DNA of 24,000 nt from assembly GCA_049317085.1 (NCBI GenBank), contig JBMOIY010000019.1, positions 2,161 through 26,160 on the forward strand, written 5' to 3'. A model generated the notes under the pieces. It searched no databases. It was not told the DNA's origin and saw only the letters and a list, made by a program, of their open reading frames with translations. Source of the DNA: Rickettsiales bacterium (lineage in GTDB: Bacteria > Pseudomonadota > Alphaproteobacteria > Rickettsiales > UBA3002). Of this stretch, positions 490 to 21,914 are shown one piece after another; position 1 is the first letter of the stretch; each line of letters opens with the position of its first letter. The translations under genes were made by a program, and so were the position numbers.

Positions 490-2034
490 TCAAACTTCTT
501 CTATTTCTTCTTCAATATCAATTGGTATTAGCGCTTCTTTTGGTAATGCAAGCCGCACACACGCACCCTTGCCATCGTGCGGATCAATAGCTGCAATCGT
601 TCCACCATGCGCCTCGATAATCCCACGGCAAATATAAAGCCCCAGCCCCGTTCCTGCGATTTTACGGTCACCGTGCTTGGAGCGGTAGAACTTCACGAAA
701 ATGGCTTCCCGTTCCGATTCAGGGATACCTTCGCCGTCATCATCAATATCGATGGTGGCGGATTGTTCGTTAAAGGATGCAATAATCTTCACCTCTCCTT
801 CGGGTGGGCCATATTTGATGGCGTTTTCTAGCAGGTTCAGGAACACCAGCTCCATCAATGCGGAATTGACATATAGCAGTGGAAAATCTGGCGCTGCTTG
901 AATAGAAAAACGCTGCTTACCGATTAATGGGTGAAGGGATTTAAGGCTACTTGCCAGCATATCGCGCAAAAGCACTGTGTCTTTGTGTATAGCTTCAAGC
1001 CCGGATTCAAGACGGCTGATTTCTACCAGATTATTGATGAAGCGGTTGAGTTTTTGCGCTTCTTCCAGCCCTCCGGCGACCATCTCGCGGCTGTCGAAAT
1101 TATCCTGCACTTGTTTCATTTCCTTGAGCGAACTAAACGCGCCGATGACCGTCACCAGCGGTGTTTTGAAATCATGCGATACGGAAGAAAGCAAAGCGGA
1201 AAGAAATTTCTCTCGCTCGGCATCGCGCAGTTTTTTCTGATGCGCTTCGGCAAGGCGTGCTTTTTCAAGGGCGCTGGCGGTTTGTGCGGTGAGCGTTGCC
1301 AGCACTTTAGAAGAAAAACGCTCAACTACATCCGAGCCGACGCAGAGTAACCCAAGCGCGGATTCCTGCACAGAAAGCGGGAGGTAAAGATTTTGGCTAT
1401 CGGTAAAATGCTTGGTGCCACTGCCAACGGGCGTATTGTTATCAATGCAAAACTGCCCTGCTTGATTGAGTCTTTCTCTCTCGCTTCTCAAGATGATTGT
1501 CGCCTCACTATCCAGCAATGAGGATAATTTTGCCTCTGCTGCGCGGCGCATATCAGGGATATTGGCAATCCCCAGCATGTCCTGGCTCAAAGCATAGACG
1601 CCCGAAAGCACGCGCTCGCGCTGCATTGCCTCTCGCGCCAACTTGCGTATGCGGCTGGAAAGCGCACTTGCCACAATCGCTACAAAACTAAGTGCAAACA
1701 TTTTTGCAACGTTTTCGACCTCCCACAGTCCGATGTGCCATACTGGAGGCAGAAGCACGAAGTTATAGGCAAGTACGGAGAATACAGCAGCGATAAGCGA
1801 AGCTCGCAGACCATAAACTACTGCGCCCACCAGTACCGGAATGACAAACAGTACGCTCAGTGCTTCAGGCGATGGAAAACCCGCCGATACTAATAACCAT
1901 GCGACCAGTGATGTGAAAATAACGGGAGCAACGGTAATACTAACGCTGGCGAAAAAATTATGGCTACGCGAACCTATTTCACCTTCGGTGATAAAATGAT
2001 GAAGCTGTGATTCCAGTGTGACAGCGGGTGCCAT
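490..2034 (-). CDS. kdpD: Sensor histidine kinase, the KdpD C-terminal-half type (DUF4118 membrane domain + HisKA + HATPase_c). It lacks the N-terminal KdpD/Usp sensing domains.
   Basis: 514-aa ORF. It has four predicted TM helices at the N-terminus in the DUF4118 style (VAPVIFTSLVAWLL..., VLFVIPVLVGAVVYG..., LIAAVFSVLAYNFVLLPP..., MFALSFVAIVASAL). H-box SHDFKTPL, N-box LLENAIKYG, G1 DDDGEGIP, G2 GTGLGL. Its stop lies 3 nt upstream of the kdpE-like start on the same strand. Confidence 0.7.
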   Translation of the reverse strand: MAPAVTLESQLHHFITEGEIGSRSHNFFASVSITVAPVIFTSLVAWLLVSAGFPSPEALSVLFVIPVLVGAVVYGLRASLIAAVFSVLAYNFVLLPPVWHIGLWEVENVAKMFALSFVAIVASALSSRIRKLAREAMQRERVLSGVYALSQDMLGIANIPDMRRAAEAKLSSLLDSEATIILRSERERLNQAGQFCIDNNTPVGSGTKHFTDSQNLYLPLSVQESALGLLCVGSDVVERFSSKVLATLTAQTASALEKARLAEAHQKKLRDAEREKFLSALLSSVSHDFKTPLVTVIGAFSSLKEMKQVQDNFDSREMVAGGLEEAQKLNRFINNLVEISRLESGLEAIHKDTVLLRDMLASSLKSLHPLIGKQRFSIQAAPDFPLLYVNSALMELVFLNLLENAIKYGPPEGEVKIIASFNEQSATIDIDDDGEGIPESEREAIFVKFYRSKHGDRKIAGTGLGLYICRGIIEAHGGTIAAIDPHDGKGACVRLALPKEALIPIDIEEEIEEV

Positions 2035-2046
2035 AGATTCCTTTGA

Positions 2047-2745
2047 TTAAAACATGCCGCTAACCAGTTGCCATATTACCCACGCATACCCACTGATTAG
2101 TGCTACAAAAAAGCATAAGGCAAAAAACGTGAGTAGCCAACCTGTTATCATAAAAATGCCATCACGTTCTGTAATGGCGAGCGCCAGAACAGCCATAGCA
2201 ATGCCAAGAGGTAGGTTCCCTAAAGGAATGGGCAGCGCAATAAGCAACGCGAGCAACAGGATCAGCCCGCCGGCAAAACGCTCAAAATTCCGTGTGGTAA
2301 TTTTGTCAAGACGAGGCTTTACCATTTTCTCCAATCGCACCAGCCACGGCAATGACTTTTGCAGTAACGGCCTGAGTTTACACATTGGAATCTGGCGACT
2401 TGCTAACCAGCCGGGAAGCCATATATGCTCCTTACCTAAACAAAGCTGCGCGGCAAAAAATATGAGTGGAAGGCTAGTAAGCGTTGATACTCCGGGAATG
2501 GGGAGCGGAATCGTATTGGGAAGCGCAAACAATAAAAGCATCAACCCGAATCCACGATCCCCAAGCTGCGCCGATAGGTCACGTACACTTATGCTATCAC
2601 CATGAAACCCTGTAATTTCATGAAGAATGCTGCTGCTAGAACGGTAGCGACTGCCACGCTCCTTTGGCAAAGCGACCAGGCGCGATGCAGTCGTTGCTTG
2701 ATCCATATCCATCCCTCTTTCATCGAGTCGATAAAATTTTTGCAT
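2047..2745 (-). CDS. exoD: Exopolysaccharide synthesis protein, ExoD family, membrane protein
   Basis: 232-aa ORF. The block SVRDLSAQLGDRGFGLMLLLFALPNTIPLPIPGVSTL...IFFAAQL..G....WLP.WL, followed by two more hydrophobic segments, is the ExoD (PF06055) pattern as I recall it. The start is uncertain: the ATG at 2706 (MDQATT...) has a better Shine-Dalgarno (AGAGGG plus 6 nt) than the ATG at 2745. Confidence 0.7.
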   Translation of the reverse strand: MQKFYRLDERGMDMDQATTASRLVALPKERGSRYRSSSSILHEITGFHGDSISVRDLSAQLGDRGFGLMLLLFALPNTIPLPIPGVSTLTSLPLIFFAAQLCLGKEHIWLPGWLASRQIPMCKLRPLLQKSLPWLVRLEKMVKPRLDKITTRNFERFAGGLILLLALLIALPIPLGNLPLGIAMAVLALAITERDGIFMITGWLLTFFALCFFVALISGYAWVIWQLVSGMF

Positions 2746-2844
2746 GGGCGTAGGGGATGGATTTCTTCAAAATCCGCATCAATCACTGCCCGTGCTTCTG
2801 CGTTCAACAGATCACCTTCAGGGAAGCCCCGCTCATAAGGACTT

Positions 2845-3057
2845 TTACGCATAGCCCGTCCGTTTCGGAATGAGGGAGCGAAGACGCTGTCCGATCCGCG
2901 AAAGCCGTTTGCGCTTGGTACAATATTCCAGCAGCGCAAATTCTCGGTCGTCAGGTAATTCCCTCCACCCATCATCTTGGCTGTCGAGCAACCGGTACAG
3001 TGAACGATCACTAAGCGTAAAGACATCCAAGCCTCCATAATCCGATGATTTAGACAT
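2845..3057 (-). CDS. Hypothetical small protein (70 aa), downstream partner of the amphi-Trp gene
   Basis: ATG at 3057 is preceded by GGGAGA plus 7 nt and lies 13 nt after the amphi-Trp gene stop. Sequence: MSKSSDYGGLDVFTLSDRSLYRLLDSQDDGWRELPDDREFALLEYCTKRKRL... I recognise no family. This is the internal start of track ORF 2845..3201. Confidence 0.5.
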   Translation of the reverse strand: MSKSSDYGGLDVFTLSDRSLYRLLDSQDDGWRELPDDREFALLEYCTKRKRLSRIGQRLRSLIPKRTGYA

Positions 3058-3070
3058 AGTTTTTCTCCCG

Positions 3071-3298
3071 TCAGTTTTTCCATTTGATCTGAAATTCAAT
3101 TTCTTCTTCGCGTCCCGCGCGCTCATGCTCGACGTTGAAGATAGCATCCTTGGGAACGTAAATGCGCTCACCTGCGATCTGGATATCGAACCTTTCGCCA
3201 TTTTCCAGACAATCTGCCAGCCTACGAATCTTCTCCACGAATTGCTCCGTGCTATAGGTTTTTTCGATATCGCGGTTTTTCATTTTCACGGTATTCAT
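3071..3298 (-). CDS. Amphi-Trp domain-containing small protein (75 aa)
   Basis: Strong SD (AAGGAG plus 5 nt). MNTVKMKNRDIEKTYSTEQFVEKIRRLADCLENGERFDIQIAGERIYVPKDAIFNVEHERAGREEEIEFQIKWKN. An acidic beta-hairpin-like tail ending in E-I-E-F-x-I-K-W-K matches my recollection of the amphi-Trp family (TIGR04354-like). Recalled, not searched. Confidence 0.5.
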   Translation of the reverse strand: MNTVKMKNRDIEKTYSTEQFVEKIRRLADCLENGERFDIQIAGERIYVPKDAIFNVEHERAGREEEIEFQIKWKN

Positions 3299-3322
3299 GT
3301 TTTCTCCTTTTTGGTTAATATG

Positions 3323-4072
3323 TTACTGTCTTCTATCGCCCAGCAGATGCATCAGACTAATGAAGATATTGATGAAATCGAGATAGAGCGTCAGCGCCCC
3401 CATGATGACGGTTTTCGCCATCGCTTCGCCCTCAATCTGTAACTCGTAGTAAAGATTTTTTAGCTTTTGCGTGTCGTAAGCGGTAAGGCCGGTGAACACC
3501 AATACGCCGATGACAGAGAGTGCGAACTGCAACGCCGAGCTTTGCAGGAAGATATTGACCAATGAAGCAAGAATTAGGCCAATCACACCCATAATCAGGA
3601 ACGAGCCAAGCTTGGTCAGATCACGCTGCGTGGTGTAGCCGTAAATGCTCATAGTGCCGAATGTGCCAGCGGTGATAAAAAACACACGGGCGATGCTGGT
3701 GCCGGTATAGGTAAGAAATAGCGTGGTGAGCGATAGCCCCATCACCACGGCAAAACCCCAGAATCCGGCTTGCGCAGCGCCAAGGCTCATTTTATGAAGC
3801 GCAAACCCCATCCACATGGACATGCCCAGCGGGGCAAGCATAATGATCCACGCCAGAGGCTTCATGCCGGTAACCGCCGTGCCTTCCATCACATACATGG
3901 CGTTAAGAAATGCCGGTGACTGCACCGCAAGCAATGCGACAATACCCGTAATGGCGAGCGCACTTCCCATGTAGTTGTAAATTTTGAGCATGTAGGCGCG
4001 TAGGCCAGCATCGTAGATGGCAGCTTGTGCGGTGCTATTCTGGCGTGCAGCCTGAGTATAGTAGTCGTTCAT
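3323..4072 (-). CDS. Bax inhibitor-1/YccA family membrane protein
   Basis: 249 aa with seven hydrophobic segments. The N-terminus ...AIYDAGLRAYMLKIYNYMGSALAITGIVA and the C-terminus ...GALTLYLDFINIFISLMHLLG are typical of alphaproteobacterial BI-1/YccA proteins. Confidence 0.85.
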   Translation of the reverse strand: MNDYYTQAARQNSTAQAAIYDAGLRAYMLKIYNYMGSALAITGIVALLAVQSPAFLNAMYVMEGTAVTGMKPLAWIIMLAPLGMSMWMGFALHKMSLGAAQAGFWGFAVVMGLSLTTLFLTYTGTSIARVFFITAGTFGTMSIYGYTTQRDLTKLGSFLIMGVIGLILASLVNIFLQSSALQFALSVIGVLVFTGLTAYDTQKLKNLYYELQIEGEAMAKTVIMGALTLYLDFINIFISLMHLLGDRRQ

Positions 4073-4316
4073 GGCGGTTCTTTCTCTTTCAAATTACGCG
4101 CAGTCTTTTTGCGCACACTCATTAATACACCAGCACACCGCCAAATCGCTGTACTGACTCTGCCTTGCCTTCGTTTTAATTGCGTAGTGATGGTGTAAAA
4201 ATTCCGTATATTCCCGCCTACGGAAGTACAGCGGCTTCCGCCTTCAGTCGGTACGGACTTACTACGGCCATGCTTGTTATAGTTTCTTAAAGTTAAACAA
4301 CCATAAGGAGGAACTA

Positions 4317-4487
4317 ATGCATGACCAAGATTCATATAGTCTCTACTGCGCGATGCTCCTGCAAGAATACCAGCAGCACGGCACCGCCTTAAACGGTATC
4401 GACCAATCGATTGTGGATGCGTGCCAAAGTTATCTGGACACCAATACTCAAAGGTATCGTGAAAACAGCAAAGAGGTTTGTTTATGA
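4317..4487 (+). CDS. Hypothetical small protein (56 aa), first gene of a four-gene small-protein array
   Basis: Below the ORF-track length cutoff. Perfect SD AAGGAGG plus 6 nt before ATG 4317. MHDQDSYSLYCAMLLQEYQQHGTALNGIDQSIVDACQSYLDTNTQRYRENSKEVCL. Its TGA (4485-4487) overlaps the next ATG (4484-4486) as ATGA. Confidence 0.5.
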   Translation: MHDQDSYSLYCAMLLQEYQQHGTALNGIDQSIVDACQSYLDTNTQRYRENSKEVCL

Positions 4488-4768
4488 GTTCGATGAAGCA
4501 TTTTACCCGTTCCGTCCGTCAGGAAATCAGTAGGATTTCTATGACCATTAAGCAGATGGAGTTCCGTATCGCGCGCTTTCGAGGACTCCTAAGGCGGAAA
4601 CTGCGGGAAGAAATTCAGGAACTACGACGCATGAAAGACGCGATCATGCATCGGCTGTCGGAATTAACGGCTGAAGCGCGGCTACACTTACCCACCATGC
4701 AATCCATCCGCGATGACATCGCGTTGCTACATGAGCGTTGCCGTCAATTGAAAACTCAACATTTATAG
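4484..4768 (+). CDS. Hypothetical coiled-coil small protein (94 aa)
   Basis: ATG at 4484 (the track starts at TTG 4478), with AAGAGG 8 nt upstream and ATGA coupling to the previous ORF. The sequence is Arg/Glu/Leu-rich and heptad-like (KQMEFRIARFRGLLRRKLREEIQELRRMKDAIMHRLSELTAEARL...). Confidence 0.55.
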   Translation: MSSMKHFTRSVRQEISRISMTIKQMEFRIARFRGLLRRKLREEIQELRRMKDAIMHRLSELTAEARLHLPTMQSIRDDIALLHERCRQLKTQHL

Positions 4769-4778
4769 GAGTAAAACC

Positions 4779-5003
4779 ATGATTTTGCCGCTGGGCGCAA
4801 CGTCACCCGACACCGGCTATTCGTTCCCTTACCTGTATGGTGTGGGGTACGACTATGGTGGACGGTTTGTACCGAGACAAACCCCACCGGTGCCCCCGCC
4901 GGTGGGGACGGAGGTTAGGGATATGGTGTCTTTAAGCCCTGCCGCCCAGCGTATTCTTGATCAAGCGGAACGCTTAACAAAAATGAGTATAGGAAAGGAA
5001 TAA
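4779..5003 (+). CDS. Hypothetical small protein (74 aa) with a Gly/Tyr- and Pro-rich N-terminal half
   Basis: SD AGGAG plus 7 nt. MILPLGATSPDTGYSFPYLYGVGYDYGGRFVPRQTPPVPPPVGTEVRDMVSLSPAAQRILDQAERL... No family recognised. Confidence 0.5.
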   Translation: MILPLGATSPDTGYSFPYLYGVGYDYGGRFVPRQTPPVPPPVGTEVRDMVSLSPAAQRILDQAERLTKMSIGKE

Positions 5004-5006
5004 CCA

Positions 5007-5231
5007 ATGACCGCCATCCATTGCCCCATATGCCAAGCGCCTTTCAAAGAAGTAGCGAGAGAAGGTGTTTTGATCGACGTATGTACCCAATGTAGAGGAG
5101 TATGGCTTGACAACGGCGAGCTTGAAAAATTAATGGATATAGCGCGCGAAGAGATAAATAAACCCAGAAAGATTGGCCGCAGATCGGATTCCGGGAGATC
5201 GCGCATTGAAAGCTGGCTGGAGCCGTTATAA
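5007..5231 (+). CDS. TFIIB-type zinc-ribbon protein (zf-TFIIB, PF13453-like), 74 aa
   Basis: SD AAGGA plus 7 nt. CPICQAPF...(15 residues)...CTQCRGVWLDNGELEKLM is the CxxC...CxxCxGxWhD.gEL.kl signature of this family. Basic C-terminal tail. Confidence 0.75.
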   Translation: MTAIHCPICQAPFKEVAREGVLIDVCTQCRGVWLDNGELEKLMDIAREEINKPRKIGRRSDSGRSRIESWLEPL

Positions 5232-5292
5232 TTTTCATGCAACGCGACATCGCAATCGTCGCCTGCTAATCCTCTAGAGTTGGAATTTTCGA

Positions 5293-6273
5293 ATGGAATT
5301 TTTCTTTGATGTCGTGATGGGTAAGCCCGTCTGGATGTGGGCTACTTTCATGGGCATTGTGGCTGTCCTGCTCGCTTTTGATTTAGGAGTTTTACACCGC
5401 AAAACACGGGAAATTTCCATTAAGGAAAGTCTGTGGCTTAGTGCTTTTTATATTTCTATCGCGCTGCTCTTTGGAGCGTGGGTATGGCATTCACTGGGCG
5501 CACAAAGTGGCAAGGAATATTTCACAGGCTTCATCGTTGAGAAAACACTTGCGATGGATAATGTGTTCATTATCTCTCTGATTTTTACGTATTTCGCAAT
5601 CCCGCCCCTATACCAGCATCGCGTGCTGTTCTGGGGTATTCTCGGTGTGATCGTATTACGCGCCATCATGATTGGACTCGGCGCAACGCTAGTAGCAGAG
5701 TTTAGCTGGATTCTTTACATATTTGCTGTGTTCCTGATCATCACTGGTATCAAAATGCTATGGATCGGTGAAAAGCTACCCAACATCGACAATAACCCGT
5801 TACTCAAATTCCTGCGGCACAATTTCCGTATCAGCAATGAACTTCACGGCCAGAAATTTACCGTGAAGCTGCCTGATCAAAAAACCGGCAAACTTAAAAC
5901 CTTCGGTACGCCGTTGCTGGTAGCGCTTGTGCTGATCGAGTTCGTGGATTTAATCTTCGCGGTAGATAGCGTACCTGCCATCTTCACCATTACGCTTGAC
6001 CCGTATATCGTTTACACCAGCAACATCTTTGCCATCCTTGGCTTGCGTGCGCTGTATTTCGCGCTCGCCGCCATTATCCACCGCTTCAAATATCTGAAGC
6101 AAGCATTGGCGTGGGTACTTATTTTTATTGGATCAAAAACCTTCATCGCCGATGCGATGGGCATGGAAAAATTTCCCGCCAGCCTCTCGCTGGGTGTGAC
6201 CTTTGCCATCATCCTAGCTGGTGTACTGGTGTCACTTTATAAAACAAGAAAGCATGAAGCTATTATCAGCTAA
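5293..6273 (+). CDS. TerC/Alx family integral membrane protein (putative metal, e.g. Mn2+, exporter)
   Basis: 326 aa. Blocks GFIVEKTLAMDNVFIISLIF and LIEFVDLIFAVDSVPAIFTIT...YIVYTSNIFAILGLRALYF are the duplicated TerC signature (E..LS.DN.F / D..FA.DS.PA). Confidence 0.85.
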   Translation: MEFFFDVVMGKPVWMWATFMGIVAVLLAFDLGVLHRKTREISIKESLWLSAFYISIALLFGAWVWHSLGAQSGKEYFTGFIVEKTLAMDNVFIISLIFTYFAIPPLYQHRVLFWGILGVIVLRAIMIGLGATLVAEFSWILYIFAVFLIITGIKMLWIGEKLPNIDNNPLLKFLRHNFRISNELHGQKFTVKLPDQKTGKLKTFGTPLLVALVLIEFVDLIFAVDSVPAIFTITLDPYIVYTSNIFAILGLRALYFALAAIIHRFKYLKQALAWVLIFIGSKTFIADAMGMEKFPASLSLGVTFAIILAGVLVSLYKTRKHEAIIS

Positions 6274-6286
6274 GAAGGAGACAAAT

Positions 6287-6712
6287 ATGCCCAATAAAAA
6301 AATTATAGAAAAACTAAACACCATTTTGGAATTTGAACTGGCGGGTGTGGTTCGCTATACGCATTATTCACTGATGGTCTTTGGCCACACGCGCATTCCT
6401 ATTGTTTCGTGGTTGCGTGAACAGGCCAGTGAATCATTGCTGCATGCCTATCAGGCGGGTGAGCACATCACTACTTTAGGTGGTCATCCATCGCTCAAAA
6501 TCGCCGCATTACTCGAAACGCACAAGCATTCCATCAATGATATTTTGGAAGAAAGCCTTGAACATGAGAGTGAGCAAATCAGAAATTACATGGCATTGCT
6601 GAAACTCGTAGAAGGCAAGTCTGTCTATCTCGAAGAATATGCACGCGCCATGATTAATGATGAAGAAATGCATGTATCTGAAGTGCAAAAAATGCTTCGT
6701 AAGCCCGAGTAA
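6287..6712 (+). CDS. Ferritin-like / bacterioferritin-family protein (141 aa)
   Basis: ATG 6287 follows AAGGAG plus 6 nt (the track ORF starts earlier, inside terC). It aligns without gaps to my recollection of E. coli Bfr over the first ~65 residues (KIIEKLNTILEFEL....Y......). Equivalents of E18, Y25, H54, E94, E127 and H130 are present. Confidence 0.65.
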   Translation: MPNKKIIEKLNTILEFELAGVVRYTHYSLMVFGHTRIPIVSWLREQASESLLHAYQAGEHITTLGGHPSLKIAALLETHKHSINDILEESLEHESEQIRNYMALLKLVEGKSVYLEEYARAMINDEEMHVSEVQKMLRKPE

Positions 6713-6743
6713 TTCTATCGCTAATTTAACCAAGGAGAAACTT

Positions 6744-7490
6744 ATGTTTGATGCTAAAAACTTACTCGCCAATATTGATTCAAATGGACTCGTTGGCAAA
6801 ATGCTTGGCGGTATGGCTACCAAAAATTTTGCTGCCGGATTGCTGACAGGTGGCGTTGCCACTTCGCTACTGGGCGGCGGCAAAGACACAGTGGAAACCG
6901 TAGCAAAAGTTGGTGGGTTGGCGCTGCTAGGGACATTGGCGTACAAAGCCTTCGGCAATTATCAGCAGCAGAAATCTGCGGGCGGCAAAGCCAGTGTTGT
7001 AGATGCGGTAAAGCATTCCGCAAGCGGAATGGCGACACAGGCGAGCAGCATTATTTCTGGTCTGCTTTCAGGCAATCAGCCGTCAAGCGCATCTTTACCC
7101 GCTCCCCTAGCGGCTCCGGCCAATGCAGAACTTCCGCTGGCGATTATCCGCGCCATGATCGCCGCAGCTAAAGCTGATGGGCATATGGATGCGCCGGAAA
7201 CCCAGAAAATTATGGGGCAGCTGGAATCCGCAGGCGTAGGTGCTCAGGAAAAAGCCCTGCTGATGCAGGAAATGGCGAATACGCAGGATGTGAATGCTAT
7301 TGCTAAAGCTGCCACATCGCCACACGATGGCGCGCAAATTTACCTTGCAGCCTTGCTGGTATGCGATAGCCAGTGTGTGCGTGAGCAGGAATACCTCGCC
7401 TCGCTTGCCAGCGCCTTGAAGCTGGAGCCTGCCTTTACCGTCAGCCTGCAAGAAGAACTTCTTAACATGTCGGCACAGGAGGCGGCCTGA
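6744..7490 (+). CDS. TerB-family / DUF533 (YebE-like) membrane-associated protein
   Basis: ATG 6744 follows AAGGAGA plus 5 nt. Gly-rich N-terminal membrane segments (GLLTGGVATSLLGGG, VGGLALLGTLAYKAF) precede a C-terminal TerB-like domain (LAIIRAMIAAAKADGHMDAPETQKI...AQIYLAALLVCD....EQEYL..LA.AL.L). Confidence 0.75.
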   Translation: MFDAKNLLANIDSNGLVGKMLGGMATKNFAAGLLTGGVATSLLGGGKDTVETVAKVGGLALLGTLAYKAFGNYQQQKSAGGKASVVDAVKHSASGMATQASSIISGLLSGNQPSSASLPAPLAAPANAELPLAIIRAMIAAAKADGHMDAPETQKIMGQLESAGVGAQEKALLMQEMANTQDVNAIAKAATSPHDGAQIYLAALLVCDSQCVREQEYLASLASALKLEPAFTVSLQEELLNMSAQEAA

Positions 7491-8806
7491 TGACCAGTGC
7501 TTCTTCCCCACAGGAAGCCAGCCCCACAAAAAAAGCCTTGCACCGCTCGATCTACGTTCAAGTGATTGTCGCCATTATTCTGGGGATCGGCTTTGGCCAT
7601 TTTCACCCGGAAATGGCTGCAACAATGAAGCCACTCGCTGATGGCTTTATCAAGCTAATCAAAATGATCATCGGGCCAATTATTTTCTGCACCATCGTTC
7701 ATGGGGTTGCTGGGTCTGATAATTTAAGGCAAGTCGGCACTGTCGGCGTGAAGGCGCTCAGCTATTTCATGTTTATGACAACGTTTGCCATGTTGATTGG
7801 ACTGGTTGTGGTGAATATCCAGCAGCCGGGCGTTGGGATGAATATTGGTTCGACGGTGCATGAGCAGGAATACGTTGCCGCTGATAAGGGCAACACACCG
7901 ACCGCTGCTAAATCGCACAACAGTGCGGTGGATTTTGTACTTAATATCATTCCAAAAACCATGTCGTCCGCTTTCACAGAAGGTAATATTCTACAGGTTC
8001 TTTTTATATCGCTCCTATGTGCATTTGCGCTGGCGGGTATGGGAGAAAAAGGAAAGCCAGTAGTACATGGGATTGAGCTGCTTTCCGCCATGTTTTTTCG
8101 CATCGTGAACATGATCGTAAAACTTGCGCCAATCGGCGCATTCGGCGCAATGGCCTTTACGATTGGTGAGCATGGGATAGAATCACTGATAAAACTTTTC
8201 GCCATGATGCTTGGCTTTTACGCAACCTGCATCCTGTTTGTTGGTGTTGTATTATGGGCAGTGATGCGCGTTGTGGGTCTTTCGCTCTGGTCATTCCTTA
8301 AATACATTAAAGAGGAAATATTCATTGTCGTCGGCACTTGTTCATCAGAAACGGTGCTGCCGCAGATGGTAGAAAAACTCACCAAGCTCGGTTGCAAACG
8401 CTCAGTAGCCGGAATGGTGATTCCTACGGGATATTCTTTCAATCTGGACGGTACAGCCATTTATTTAACGATGGGGGCAATGTTCATCGCCCAAGCAACT
8501 AATACTCCTATGGGGCTTGGTGAGCAGCTCTCCTTACTTGCGCTACTTATTGTGGCCTCTAAAGGTGCAGCCGCAGTAAGTGGCGGATCATTTATTGTGC
8601 TCGCCGCAACCTTATCCACTATGGATCTGATTCCACCGGCACTGCTTACCATCGCACTTGCGCAGATATTTGCGATTCATCGGTTCATGTCTGAAGCCAT
8701 TTCCGTCACGAATCTCATTGGCAATGGCGTAGCAACGTTATTCGTTTCCAAATGGGAAAAAGCCTTGGATATGAATGTTGCCAGAAAAATGCTGAGTGAA
8801 AGATAA
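7490..8806 (+). CDS. dctA: C4-dicarboxylate/cation symporter (DAACS family)
   Basis: 438 aa. SIYVQVIVAIILGIGFGHF...LADGFIKLIKMIIGPIIFCTIVHGVAG..., ...GTCSSETVLPQM..., ...IPTGYSFNLDGTAIY... are canonical DctA/GltP blocks. The ATG overlaps the previous stop by 1 nt (TGATG). Confidence 0.9.
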   Translation: MTSASSPQEASPTKKALHRSIYVQVIVAIILGIGFGHFHPEMAATMKPLADGFIKLIKMIIGPIIFCTIVHGVAGSDNLRQVGTVGVKALSYFMFMTTFAMLIGLVVVNIQQPGVGMNIGSTVHEQEYVAADKGNTPTAAKSHNSAVDFVLNIIPKTMSSAFTEGNILQVLFISLLCAFALAGMGEKGKPVVHGIELLSAMFFRIVNMIVKLAPIGAFGAMAFTIGEHGIESLIKLFAMMLGFYATCILFVGVVLWAVMRVVGLSLWSFLKYIKEEIFIVVGTCSSETVLPQMVEKLTKLGCKRSVAGMVIPTGYSFNLDGTAIYLTMGAMFIAQATNTPMGLGEQLSLLALLIVASKGAAAVSGGSFIVLAATLSTMDLIPPALLTIALAQIFAIHRFMSEAISVTNLIGNGVATLFVSKWEKALDMNVARKMLSER

Positions 8807-8807
8807 T

Positions 8808-9575
8808 ATGGTAAAATTATCTCTCAAAAGTTTTGTCGAAGCGCCGTGGTTCACCAGAACCATTATGGTGCTGATCGTCATCAATGCCGCGATTCTGGGG
8901 ATGGAAACCTACCCCGGAATCATGGCGCTGTACGGCAGCACACTTAAAGTTATAGATCACGTCATACTCTGGGTGTTCGTGGCAGAGTTATGCTTACGTT
9001 TGGCCGCATACCGCCTGAGATTCTTCCGCGACCCGTGGAGTATTTTTGATACGGCAGTGGTGTTGATTGCCTTTATGCCCGCTAATGAAGCGTTTGCAGT
9101 GCTTAGGGCAGCACGTGTGCTGCGCGTGCTGCGGCTGATTTCAATCTTCCCGCGCCTAAGGCGCGTCATTGAGGGTTTGATTGGTGCTATCCCAGGTATC
9201 GGCTCCATTGGTGCCATTTTGATGATCGTGTTTTACGTCTTCGCTGTTATGGCCACGAAACTCTATGGAGCACAATTTCCCAACTGGTTCGGCAGCCTGC
9301 ACGGTTCGTTCTTCACGCTGTTTCAAATCATGACGCTGGAAGGTTGGGCGGACATCGTGCGCGAAATCATGAAAACCCATCCGCAGGCATGGATATTTTT
9401 CGTCATCTACATATTAGCTGCCACTTTTACCGTACTCAATCTTTTTATCGCGGTGATCGTTGACGCGATGCAAAGACAGCATCAGTCAGAGGAGCAGGTA
9501 GAGAAAGACTCCATCAAGCGCATCGAAACAGAATTGATGAAGCTTCACCAGAAAATCGACGCGATGGGAAAATGA
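8808..9575 (+). CDS. Single-domain (6-TM) voltage-gated cation channel of the BacNav/NaChBac superfamily, with a TLEGWAD selectivity filter
   Basis: S4 has four phased arginines (LRAARVLRVLRLIS). Pore helix and filter: FFTLFQIMTLEGWADIV (filter at 9333-9353). S6: FFVIYILAATFTVLNLFIAVIVD. C-terminal neck and coiled coil: EEQVEKDSIKRIETELMKLHQKIDAM. The ATG at 8808 lies 1 nt after the dctA stop; an alternative GTG is at 8796. Confidence 0.85.
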   Translation: MVKLSLKSFVEAPWFTRTIMVLIVINAAILGMETYPGIMALYGSTLKVIDHVILWVFVAELCLRLAAYRLRFFRDPWSIFDTAVVLIAFMPANEAFAVLRAARVLRVLRLISIFPRLRRVIEGLIGAIPGIGSIGAILMIVFYVFAVMATKLYGAQFPNWFGSLHGSFFTLFQIMTLEGWADIVREIMKTHPQAWIFFVIYILAATFTVLNLFIAVIVDAMQRQHQSEEQVEKDSIKRIETELMKLHQKIDAMGK

Positions 9576-9640
9576 AAAATGAGCAGTAATTATAGATAGT
9601 GTACTGATGCCATTTTCTGCTTCAGCGGGGGTGCTATCCA

Positions 9641-9949
9641 TCAATTCACCGTATTACCAAGGGCGAAGCAAACATTGAGGAAGGCATTGCTCTTGAACGC
9701 GATGATGCACGCGCACGCGATCACTTCCGCGAGCATGCGGTTGAAATTGAATATAGCCCCGCGGATTTTTGGAGCACTGGACTGGAATTCGTAGCCGAGC
9801 GAGAATCTGGTGAAACGGCGCCGATTCTTGAAACTATCCTCATTGCTTTTGGCAAGGTAGCTATCTGGGAACCCGCCACGTAGCCACATGCTTTTTATGG
9901 CCTTTTCATTGTTACCGATTTCCAAAACATTCAGCGGGCCGAGATCAAC
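9641..9949 (-). pseudogene. Truncated, decayed fragment of a DUF4143-type AAA ATPase gene
   Basis: The open frame VDLGPLNVLEIGNNEKAIKSMWLRGGFPDSYLAKSNEDSFKNRRRF... carries the L.PL...E.......WLRGGFP.S.LA hallmark of the central part of these roughly 400-aa ATPases. A TAG lies immediately upstream, so there is no AAA domain. The downstream part retains only faint similarity (..F..MLA....TV.) and stops early. Confidence 0.5.
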
Positions 9950-9981
9950 CTAGTATGGGTAGATTTTAGCGAAATGAATGC

Positions 9982-10102
9982 ATGCACAATCCACCGATAA
10001 GCATGTATGTTCAGGGCAAAAAATGCACAGGAAAGTCATTTTAGTGCACACAACTTACGATTTGATGCACAAATTTGACATTTTAATGCACGACCAAAAT
10101 GG
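9982..10102 (+). repeat. Five same-strand (A/G)TGCAC motifs; the last four are exactly 21 bp apart (DnaA-box-like or iteron-like array)
   Basis: ATGCAC at 9982, ATGCAC at 10023, GTGCAC at 10044, ATGCAC at 10065, ATGCAC at 10086. The 21-nt units are aaaaATGCACaggaaagtcat / tttaGTGCACacaacttacga / tttgATGCACaaatttgacat / tttaATGCACgaccaaaatgg. TGATGCACA matches the DnaA box TTATNCACA at 8 of 9 positions; the others match at 7 of 9. Confidence 0.6.
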
Positions 10103-10362
10103 CTCGCCGAAACGGTCAATCATGCATATTGATTAATATTAATGGGTTAATAGCGGGTCTTTCCCAGCAACCTTCTATACGGGGACGCCAGGCCCGCCAT
10201 TTAGCTAGATTCAGGATTTTTAAAAGCATTTCGTTTCATTTTTTATTTAACAACAAATTGATATTAAATGGAACTTCTGTTTTTTTTGGCGAAAAACGTT
10301 TCGTTTTCACTTCGTTCGGTATCTAAAACAGCAATCATCTGCCGGTTTCGTCTCACTTCAGG

Positions 10363-10518
10363 TTATGCCCGCGCAATCGCTGGCCACCCAAAATAGTTAT
10401 CGATATAGATTTTGCGCTGCTCAGGAAATTCGATGACAGCTGCTCTTTGCTCCGGTAAAGTTCGAAACGCGTCGATGACGGCGCGCCATTGACTCGAGTC
10501 CTTAAACGTCACATGCAT
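10363..10518 (-). CDS. Hypothetical small protein (51 aa if it starts at MHVTF...); possibly a gene remnant
   Basis: The track ORF 10363..10659 would overlap the divergent neighbour's start. The shorter form MHVTFKDSSQWRAVIDAFRTLPEQRAAVIEFPEQRKIYIDNYFGWPAIARA has GC-rich-half composition. The SD is weak and I recognise no family. Confidence 0.3.
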   Translation of the reverse strand: MHVTFKDSSQWRAVIDAFRTLPEQRAAVIEFPEQRKIYIDNYFGWPAIARA

Positions 10519-10642
10519 CGCTTGGGCGCGCTCGGTACACAACATCAGCCAGAATCTCAACCGTCCCCACCCCAATTCCCATTTCAAACTTGCTATTATA
10601 TACCCATCGCTTAATTTCCAACCATTAGCGATGGAGATACCA

Positions 10643-11239
10643 ATGAAGGCACAACACAACTCCAGGACGACCGATTTGGGTACTACACTCTATGACGGGT
10701 CCACCGGCTTTCAAGTCCGCAAGCGCAACGGCATCGGAATGTTTTTTCATGTCTTTGCCTTATGCTGCATGGTGCTGATGGGTGCCTCGTTGCTTGTCTA
10801 CTATCGCTCGCCTGAAGGTTGCGCCTTTGCAGTCGCCATCGGCCTCAGCTTCGCACTGATTGCACAGAACCTCGAGAAACAGAAAAAAAGCCGCGAATCG
10901 CTGGAATTCATGAACGCGCTGTTATCCTCGGCACTTGGCGCAGGCCACCGCTTCTGCTGCATCGTGAAGAATACCGGCGACATCATGTTCTATAACCGCC
11001 CGTTCCAGGAAGTCTTCCCGGAATACATCACCCAAGGCACCCACACGCTGGATGCATTATTCACTCTTTATAATGTGCCCCAAGCCGACCATAACGCCAT
11101 CACAGGCCTGATGGCCCCGAATCGCAGCGGCACAATCAACACCAGCATCCGCGCCGAAGGTTCCAACACACAGACCATCAGCATTATCCTCGAACCCATC
11201 GAGCGGCCGACCGGGTACTTCCTGCTGCGCGGCAAATAG
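10643..11239 (+). CDS. Membrane-anchored protein with a C-terminal PAS-like fold and no output domain
   Basis: ATG 10643 follows GGAGA plus 5 nt. Two hydrophobic helices (MFFHVFALCCMVLMGASLLVYY, AFAVAIGLSFALIAQ) precede ...FMNALLSSALGAGHRFCCIVKNTGDIMFYNRPFQEVFPEY...ISIILEPIERPTGYFLLRG, which reads like a PAS core. This is a by-eye call. Confidence 0.45.
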   Translation: MKAQHNSRTTDLGTTLYDGSTGFQVRKRNGIGMFFHVFALCCMVLMGASLLVYYRSPEGCAFAVAIGLSFALIAQNLEKQKKSRESLEFMNALLSSALGAGHRFCCIVKNTGDIMFYNRPFQEVFPEYITQGTHTLDALFTLYNVPQADHNAITGLMAPNRSGTINTSIRAEGSNTQTISIILEPIERPTGYFLLRGK

Positions 11240-21838: not shown

Positions 21839-21914
21839 TGGTGGCCAGAGACGGGATCGAACCGCCGACACGGGGATTTTCAATCCCCTGCTCTACCAGC
21901 TGAGCTATCTGGCC
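21839..21914 (-). tRNA. tRNA-Phe (anticodon GAA), CCA encoded
   Basis: Reverse complement: GGCCAGATAGCTCAGCTGGTAGAGCAGGGGATTGAAAATCCCCGTGTCGGCGGTTCGATCCCGTCTCTGGCCACCA. Acceptor stem GGCCAGA/TCTGGCC, D-arm GCTCAGCTGGTAGAGC, anticodon stem GGGGA/TCCCC with loop TTGAAAA, and T-arm GGCGGTTCGATCCCGTC. 76 nt, close to E. coli tRNA-Phe. Confidence 0.95.

Follow-up and report, generated by a model that had tools for sequence, protein, structure and literature searches.

A calcium-channel-type TLEGWAD filter on a NavAb-like channel encoded downstream of TerC in a Rickettsiales genome

Which ion passes through a bacterial voltage-gated channel that combines a selectivity filter of calcium-channel type with a NavAb-like scaffold? 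The question is raised by a 24,000-nucleotide stretch of a Rickettsiales bacterium genome (GenBank assembly GCA_049317085.1, contig JBMOIY010000019.1, positions 2,161 to 26,160 of the forward strand; hereafter the window), which encodes a channel of the BacNav family with the filter T-L-E-G-W-A-D (hereafter the query). An original prediction held that this protein conducts Ca2+ rather than Na+, as it shares the glycine at filter position 4 (Gly4) and the aspartate at position 7 (Asp7) with CavMr, the Ca2+-selective channel of Meiothermus ruber. The two residues were found as described and the prediction is plausible, but the filter alone did not hold as its basis. The rule that Gly4 plus Asp7 makes a Ca2+-selective channel is incomplete, because the scaffold is NavAb-like and on such a scaffold Gly4 alone gives no Ca2+ selectivity. 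Taking all lines of analysis together, we put at about even the chances that the channel is voltage-gated and prefers Ca2+ over Na+ with a permeability ratio (PCa/PNa) above ~10, and we consider Ca2+ selectivity of the CavMr grade rather unlikely.

The protein is a true member of the family and not a chance motif, since it matched both Pfam Ion_trans (PF00520; E = 3.6e-46, residues 13–228 of 255) and solved structures. NavMs (3e-70) and NavAb (~1e-65) were the best single-domain matches, and individual domains of Cav3 and Nav1 structures were also matched with HMMER. The ATG start at 8808 yields a length matching that of close homologues (253–255 amino acids), and an in-frame GTG at 8796 would lengthen the channel by four amino acids. 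An AlphaFold2 model from the single sequence was discarded (predicted local distance difference test score, pLDDT, of 56). The rerun on an alignment of 73 sequences had a mean pLDDT of 84 and ~95 in the pore, with helices S1–S6, a P1 and a P2 pore helix on either side of a four-residue non-helical filter (176–179), and an S6 that runs unbroken into the C-terminal helix (residues 194–254). Foldseek matched this model to NavAb, CavAb, and NavMs with TM-scores of 0.75–0.90. The S4 arginines aligned with NavAb R99, R102, R105, and R108, and the countercharges E33, D50, E60, and D81 were present in the same alignment together with the hydrophobic-seal residue F57. The sequence and structural features expected of a BacNav channel were found, namely a six-transmembrane Ion_trans domain, a four-arginine S4 with its countercharges, a T-x-E/D-x-W P-loop, and a C-terminal coiled coil. 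The earlier description of a 255-residue channel with TLEGWAD in frame, a canonical four-arginine S4, and a C-terminal coiled coil agreed with the open reading frame (ORF), its translation, the Ion_trans match, and the a/d heptads (I236 to M253) on a helix modelled to residue 254. An identical protein was not found in the assembly index searched; the best relative was 93% identical.

The comparison with CavMr drawn by the original prediction was confirmed from the literature. The filter of CavMr is 183-TLEGWVD-189, and its PCa/PNa of ~218 falls to 11.9 in the G4S mutant and to 7.7 in G4D, which makes Gly4 critical; Gly4 is also conserved in domains I and III of Cav channels, which read E-G-W, and the domain I heptad of Cav3.1 and Cav3.2 is identical to that of CavMr (eLife 2020; PMC7041947). 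Both TLEGWVD and TLEGWTD confer high Ca2+ selectivity in the CavMr and the NavPp backgrounds. CavMr is the only characterised native prokaryotic Cav channel, with no structure reported. The CavMr filter given with the original prediction is correct. Like CavMr, the query is a single-domain protein with six transmembrane helices, the filter T-L-E-G-W-x-D with Gly4 and Asp7, and the spacing W-x-D-[IV]-x-R. It differs in being only 34–35% identical, in lying outside the AnclNav clade to which CavMr belongs, in having Ala6 where CavMr has Val, and in lacking the ~18-residue Cys-containing P2–S6 insertion of CavMr, with no Cys in the query loop; several AnclNavs are likewise without an extended P2–S6 loop. 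HMMER aligned the query segment TLEGWADIVREIM without gaps to TLEGWV[DE]IMYYVM of Cav3, so that domain I of these T-type channels (TLEGWV[DE]IMY) shares the T-L-E-G-W-x-D-I sequence in the same register. The Cav3 segment is, however, part of one of four non-identical domains in a protein of 24 transmembrane helices, in which the three remaining domains and long extracellular loops have a part in setting selectivity.

The resemblance to calcium channels extends from the filter residues to the geometry of P2. MAFFT multiple, global pairwise, and 224-sequence alignments placed a one-residue gap at NavAb Met181 and set query D182 opposite NavAb G182. With the counterpart of Met181 absent, the query has the Trp-to-Arg spacing of CavMr: the W-x-D-[IV]-x-R register is that of CavMr (W-V-D-V-L-R), of the short-loop AnclNavs, and of Cav3 domain I, whereas NavAb reads W-S-M-G-I-V-R. 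The Trp of the filter and the Asn of S6 were spaced by 31 residues in 185 sequences with Gly4 and an acidic residue 7 and 32 in 66 sequences with Ser4 and a non-acidic residue; it was also 31 in short-loop AnclNavs. Between 172 short-type channels and 51 channels of the TLESW[SA]MG type, the only group-specific differences were Y35/S, G179/S, the Met deletion, D182/G, and Y201/F, and because there were only these five, the divergence is focused on the filter. In these alignments, the Cav-type outer filter arises from three coupled differences from canonical relatives: Gly takes the place of Ser, Met181 is lost, and Asp takes the place of Gly.

The same comparison brings out how much is shared with the sodium channels NavAb, NavMs, and NavSp (TLESWSM), which are of the same clade as the query, 42–48% identical to it, with TM-scores in the range given above, and alike in the short turret and P2–S6 loop, the voltage-sensor charges, and the S6 numbering. 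Relative to NavAb, the query has Gly for Ser178, a deletion of Met181, Asp for Gly182, Tyr for Phe201, and ‘ETYP’ for ‘ETS’. Filters between the two types also occur. A metagenome sequence, TLEGWAMDIVRPVM, has Gly4 and retains the Met, with Asp at position 8, a natural hybrid filter, TLEAWADGIVRPVM, was found among NavAb-like channels, and one NavAb-like metagenome sequence carries the exact heptad of CavMr (TLEGWVDIAREVM). The hybrid filters TLEGWAMD, in which the Met is kept, and TLEAWADG were present in seven loci (L043, L051, L052, L055 and L047, L063, L067), and the TLEGWVD channel lies at 3001–3702 of L099. By sequence, the TLEGWVD, TLEGWAMD, and TLEAWADG channels are natural intermediates between a pore of the Na+ type and one of the query type.

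The filter is strongly conserved among relatives of the query. TLEGWx[D/E] was found in all of the 120 nearest homologues (62–93% identity) and TLEGWAD itself in 76 of them, the other endings being PD (29), GD (9), AE (3), GE (2), and SD (1); filter position 6 thus varies among A, P, G, and S in the clade. In the 73-sequence alignment, T176, L177, E178, G179, and W180 were invariant and D182 was at least 90% conserved, and in 172 clade members Gly179 was invariant and Asp or Glu occupied position 182 in at least 97%. Each of the four Gly codons and each of the two Asp codons was in use at positions 179 and 182 (60 loci), so that both residues have been kept despite extensive synonymous turnover, a codon variety that indicates purifying selection on both. 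The relatives were almost all metagenome-assembled genomes (MAGs) of uncultured Alphaproteobacteria, labelled Rickettsiales, Caulobacterales, Rhodospirillales, and Parvularculaceae. TLEGWAD is already in the published dataset, without discussion or recordings there, in two sequences of the Figure 1 source file of eLife 2020. One is that of the cultured Asticcacaulis excentricus, which is of the short-P2 type, in the same clade as the query and 53% identical to it; the other, from Tabrizicola sp. TH137, also has TLEGWAD but with a long P2 (TLEGWADAVVRPVM), and is nested among TLESWSM Na+-type channels of Rhodobacterales. The literal string TLEGWAD was not found in the literature searched.

Phylogenetic placement decided to which group the scaffold belongs. 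The tree was built from 95 sequences (39 usable sequences of the Figure 1 source file, the query, and 55 homologues) by bootstrapped neighbour-joining on a MAFFT L-INS-i alignment, and the AnclNav and Bacillus groups were split from a NavAb-like group including the query with a bootstrap of 88. Identity of the query was 48% to NavSp, 45.5% to NavAe, 43% to NavMs, 41–42% to NavAb, and 38% to NaChBac, as compared to 33.5–35% for CavMr and NavPp. Profiles built independently for the three groups, that of the NavAb-like group from TLESW sequences only, gave scores of 333.5 (NavAb-like), 233 (Bacillus), and 222 bits (AnclNav) for the whole protein, and in the same order 151, 110, and 113 bits for the voltage sensor, 144, 92.5, and 80 for the pore, and 46.6, 30.1, and 29.4 for the P-loop alone. 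The channel therefore belongs to the NavAb-like clade and lies outside the AnclNav clade of CavMr. Gain of the pore from an AnclNav channel by recombination was ruled out because the NavAb-like profile scored best in every region, and the Cav-like filter thus did not come in with a transplanted AnclNav pore. By placement the query is thus NavAb-like, yet it has neither the TLESWSM filter, nor Met181, nor the spacing of 32 of that group; with the CavMr type it shares Gly4 and an acidic residue 7, but not the placement, Val6, or the extended L6 loop with its Cys pair. The original assignment to the BacNav family was upheld, whereas a CavMr-type assignment by filter alone is wrong. Inner nodes of the tree, on which the choice between an ancestral and a derived status of the short-P2, Gly4, and Asp form among NavAb-like channels depends, had low bootstraps (5–32). 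The S1–S2 motif ETYP of the query (residues 33–36, window 8904–8915) is common to the Bacillus group and AnclNav, the canonical NavAb-like motif being ETS. Together with the short P2, it hints that the clade may retain ancestral states.

From these observations, the protein would be a homotetrameric, depolarisation-activated BacNav channel with a NavAb-like pore in which an outer filter of calcium-channel type was either gained by conversion or retained. The high-field-strength site would be a ring of four Glu178, and Gly179 at the +1 position would remove the serine hydroxyl and widen the mouth. Since the canonical Met181 is missing, four Asp182 would form a ring at the first turn of P2. Ca2+, and probably other divalent cations, would then be favoured over Na+, with a PCa/PNa not necessarily that of CavMr (~200), and the channel may serve as a voltage-triggered entry route for divalent cations. 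Ca2+ permeation is plausible because Asp7 raises the PCa/PNa of NaChBac (S195D, LESWAD) from 0.15 to 17 (Yue 2002), and because Met181 of NavAb, which is needed for Ca2+ exclusion, is missing. Substitution of this residue (M181A) raised the PCa/PNa of NavAb from <0.05 to 0.36–0.47, with or without S178G, and the authors called Met181 essential for divalent-cation exclusion (JGP 2026).

A preference for Ca2+ is opposed by a number of observations, beginning with the scaffold itself, which was NavAb-like and not AnclNav in both tree and profiles. Neither NavAb with the full CavMr heptad nor CavMr with that of NavAb gave detectable current, and the CavMr authors hold that the AnclNav and NavAb-like groups use different backbones and mechanisms (PMC7041947). 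NaChBac S192G (LEGWAS) behaved as the wild type, with a PCa/PNa of 0.15, and NaChBac LESWAD was blocked by Ca2+ and termed ‘relatively nonselective’ (Yue 2002). In NavAb, S178G (‘LivAb’) had a PCa/PNa of <0.05 and a PLi/PNa of 2.2, and the double mutant S178G/M181A was non-selective, with a PCa/PNa of merely 0.47 (JGP 2026). In addition, V6T reduces the selectivity of CavMr, in which Val6 is described as supportive, and the query has Ala6; the extended Cys-containing L6 loop of CavMr, proposed to affect selectivity, is absent from the query; and recordings of any TLEGWAD channel, or of a NavAb-like channel with this filter, were not found in the literature searched. The NaChBac and NavAb mutants each carry part of the query filter in a canonical scaffold. 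The query heptad equals NaChBac S192G plus S195D, and this LEGWAD combination was never constructed in NaChBac (Yue 2002). In the NavAb filter mutants, unlike in the query, P2 keeps its greater length, position 181 (Asp or Ala) being followed by Gly182, and the failed graft of the CavMr heptad onto NavAb is an inexact model of it because the graft kept the long spacing. Ranging from unchanged Na+ selectivity through a PCa/PNa of 17 to no current, the engineered channels would bracket the behaviour of the query without settling it.

Several of these results bear on the possibility that the protein is a Na+ channel, in which Gly4 would tune selectivity among monovalent ions (e.g., Li+) and the Asp ring would provide a low-affinity external Ca2+ block like that of NavPp or NaChBac LESWAD, the Na+ that enters being used, for example, in a Na+ cycle, for pH homeostasis, or to drive uptake. 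Membership of the NavAb-like clade and the phenotypes of LivAb and LEGWAS point in this direction, but on canonical scaffolds Asp7 and the loss of Met181 each make the pore more permeable to Ca2+. NavPp, despite three acidic residues in its filter, conducts Na+ and shows Ca2+ block, although its Na+ preference depends on Asp4, D4G making it selective for divalent cations. Homologues are labelled ‘voltage-gated sodium channel’ in databases, where such labels are automatic, and the adjoining gene in the window encodes a cation-coupled dicarboxylate symporter of the DctA type, a neighbour found in only two syntenic loci (the window and L007). The Gly, the Asp, and the deletion are moreover fixed together throughout the clade, which argues for a changed function, and we regard a Na+ channel as unlikely.

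A channel passing Na+, K+, and Ca2+ with little discrimination (PCa/PNa ~0.3–10), which would depolarise the cell, has natural and engineered precedents in NsvBa, a non-selective BacNav with the filter TLDSWGS, and in CavMr G4S and NavAb M181A. The non-selective NavAb S178G/M181A, the description of NaChBac LESWAD, the loss of monovalent discrimination in CavMr on small changes to the filter (G4S, V6T), and the variable position 6 in the clade are all in line with it. Nevertheless, no tested mutant combines Gly4, Asp7, and the short P2, a combination that is highly Ca2+-selective in AnclNav backgrounds, and non-selectivity seems to us an improbable outcome.

Table 1. Positions in the window of the channel gene, its functional elements, and the gene run in which it lies.
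Feature	Position	Strand	Basis
Voltage-gated cation channel CDS, 255 aa, single-domain, BacNav family, NavAb-like clade	8808..9575	+	ORF, Pfam, PDB matches, AlphaFold2/Foldseek
S4 voltage-sensor helix, aa 96-113, gating arginines R100/R103/R106/R109	9093..9146	+	AlphaFold2; NavAb alignment
P1 pore helix, aa 164-175, including Q173 (NavAb Q172)	9297..9332	+	AlphaFold2 pLDDT ~95; NavAb alignment
Selectivity filter T176-L-E178-G179-W180-A181-D182	9333..9353	+	Translation, conservation, codon use
P2 pore helix, aa 180-190; NavAb/NaChBac have one residue more	9345..9377	+	Alignments, spacing, AlphaFold2
S6 inner helix, aa 194-222, T206, N211, gate I217 (numbered as in NavAb)	9387..9473	+	AlphaFold2; NavAb alignment
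C-terminal coiled-coil heptads I236, I239, L243, L246, I250, M253	9513..9566	+	Spacing 3-4-3-4-3; AlphaFold2
Zn-ribbon (Zn_ribbon_TFIIB) protein gene	5007..5231	+	L004 likewise has one ahead of TerC
TerC/Alx-family metal-homeostasis membrane protein gene	5293..6273	+	Pfam TerC 1e-47; TIGR03718 381 bits, cut-off 246
Ferritin-like domain gene, between TerC and DUF533	6287..6712	+	Pfam PF00210 2.6e-19
DUF533 membrane protein gene	6744..7490	+	Pfam DUF533 1.6e-46; start by alignment (listed ORF from 6657)
DctA-type C4-dicarboxylate transporter gene, SDF family	7490..8806	+	Pfam SDF 1e-100; NCBIfam DctA 548 bits, cut-off 513

The channel gene lies in a tight same-strand run behind TerC (Table 1), with the DctA stop 1 nt before the channel ATG. 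The ferritin-like gene has an AAGGAG ribosome-binding site ahead of its ATG and is inserted in the window only, L001 and L007 lacking it at this junction in the DNA alignment; the mechanical ORF list masks it behind a GTG at 6221 and overlaps it with an over-long DUF533 ORF. The closest relatives (L001, L006–L009, L012, and L014) have the gene order TerC–DUF533–channel and no ferritin-like gene. A DctA gene between DUF533 and the channel was found only in the window and in L007 (3683–4996), a Rickettsiales-labelled MAG with 88% channel identity, the genome organisation of which is the closest because DctA is common to both. In more distant relatives (59–72% identity), TerC lies right next to the channel gene, overlapping it by 4 nt in L004 and 8 nt in L017 and not at all in L019.

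Where a locus included 1 kb or more of upstream sequence, TerC was directly upstream on the same strand of 19 of 41 Gly4 channels vs. 3 of 30 with Ser or Ala at this position (Fisher p = 0.0015, without correction for phylogeny). The TerC-linked loci were L001, L004, L006–L009, L012, L014, L017, L019, L020, L024–L026, and L033–L041, often with DUF533 between. TerC/Alx proteins are reported to be Mn2+ exporters and metalation factors (PMC10197570, PMC10550928). This suggests a divalent-metal flavour for the locus, in which the channel and a TerC/Alx exporter, probably co-transcribed, may form an influx/efflux pair. The association also has exceptions that count against a divalent-selective channel. 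Three Ser4 channels (TLESWAM) also follow TerC, and the sister Gly4 subclade, T[LM]EGWADIAR, had no adjacent upstream TerC, although L046 has a TerC gene just downstream. As proof of divalent selectivity, TerC linkage was rejected for these two reasons, and with no Mn2+ riboswitch found either, the TerC evidence is circumstantial. No riboswitch, whether Mn2+ yybP-ykoY or other, matched Rfam at the gathering threshold in the window, nor at E ≤ 1 in 4000–5400. Promoter and terminator scans of 4000–10700 gave no excess over shuffled sequence, so the operon boundaries were drawn from gene spacing only. A published link between TerC and BacNav channels did not turn up in the literature searched.

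The neighbourhood also bears on a third alternative, i.e., that the protein conducts another divalent ion such as Mn2+, or has no voltage-gated conductance alone and acts as a regulatory partner of a TerC/DUF533 module. The recurrence of the channel gene right after TerC/Alx, with overlapping or abutting stops and starts, the reported handling of Mn2+ by TerC/Alx proteins, the ferritin-like gene in the run of the window, and a relative (L018) in which the channel adjoins CNNM/CorC and TerC genes would fit such a role. The voltage-sensor and gate residues are fully canonical, however, no Mn2+ riboswitch precedes TerC in the window, and a quarter of close relatives as well as the sister Gly4 subclade lack the synteny, all of which make this alternative very unlikely. 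In L018, the channel of which is 64% identical to that of the query (4001–4768), the divergently adjoining gene is of the CNNM/CorC type (Mg2+/Co2+ efflux-like) and is followed by TerC (1341–3876, minus strand).

In a broader proposal, which is speculative and to which we attach a low probability, the short-P2 TLEGWx[D/E] clade would comprise widespread native voltage-gated Ca2+ or divalent-cation channels on the crystallisable NavAb-like scaffold. Their filter–P2 geometry, with Gly at +1, a ring of Asp, and Met181 absent, would be a retained ancestral one of the Cav type, which AnclNavs and domains I and III of eukaryotic Cav channels have as well. Paired in function with TerC/Alx exporters, and often in one operon with them, they would make up a module of voltage-gated entry and extrusion serving Ca2+ or Mn2+ signalling and homeostasis. 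If the clade were Ca2+-selective, it would be a second, independent native prokaryotic example beside CavMr, on a scaffold that has given dozens of high-resolution structures of NavAb and NavMs. The changes from Ser to Gly, deletion of Met181, and Gly182 to Asp, with the intermediates TLEGWAMD and TLEAWADG, would then form a natural three-change series allowing dissection of the role of the position-4 glycine. This role is contested because a ‘beacon’ rule predicts Ca2+ selectivity, which neither LivAb nor NaChBac LEGWAS has. Uncultured Alphaproteobacteria have the channel in abundance, and in combination with the TerC linkage this would point to voltage-coupled divalent-cation signalling in environmental bacteria. 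If it is instead Na+-selective, the Gly4/Asp7 signature is not portable between scaffolds.

Other genes of the window surround this run. A membrane protein gene of the Bax1-I/BI-1 family (YccA/YetJ-type; 3323–4072, minus strand) is divergent from the TerC run and keeps this position in L001, L007, and L009. Some members of this family are reported to be pH-sensitive Ca2+ leak channels. The 1.2 kb between it and TerC (4073–5292), compared with a gap of 440 bp in L001, holds short ORFs only and matched no Rfam family; a strong GC-rich hairpin with a T tail lies on its minus strand (4907–4882). Upstream, on the minus strand, are genes for a DUF4118/HisKA/HATPase sensor kinase and for ExoD (490–2745), which are syntenic with the TerC–channel block in L001, L004, L006, and L009. 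A response-regulator gene adjoins the sensor kinase in L001 and L004, and a regulatory connection of the kinase to the TerC–channel block is possible. The G+C content rises from ~0.47–0.49 in the first 11 kb to ~0.53–0.60 between 11 and 24 kb. The latter part contains genes for an ABC-F protein, a TPR/GT41 glycosyltransferase, a DegT aminotransferase, a methyltransferase, a rhodanese, and an M48 peptidase, and a tRNA-Phe (GAA) gene is located at 21839–21914 on the minus strand.

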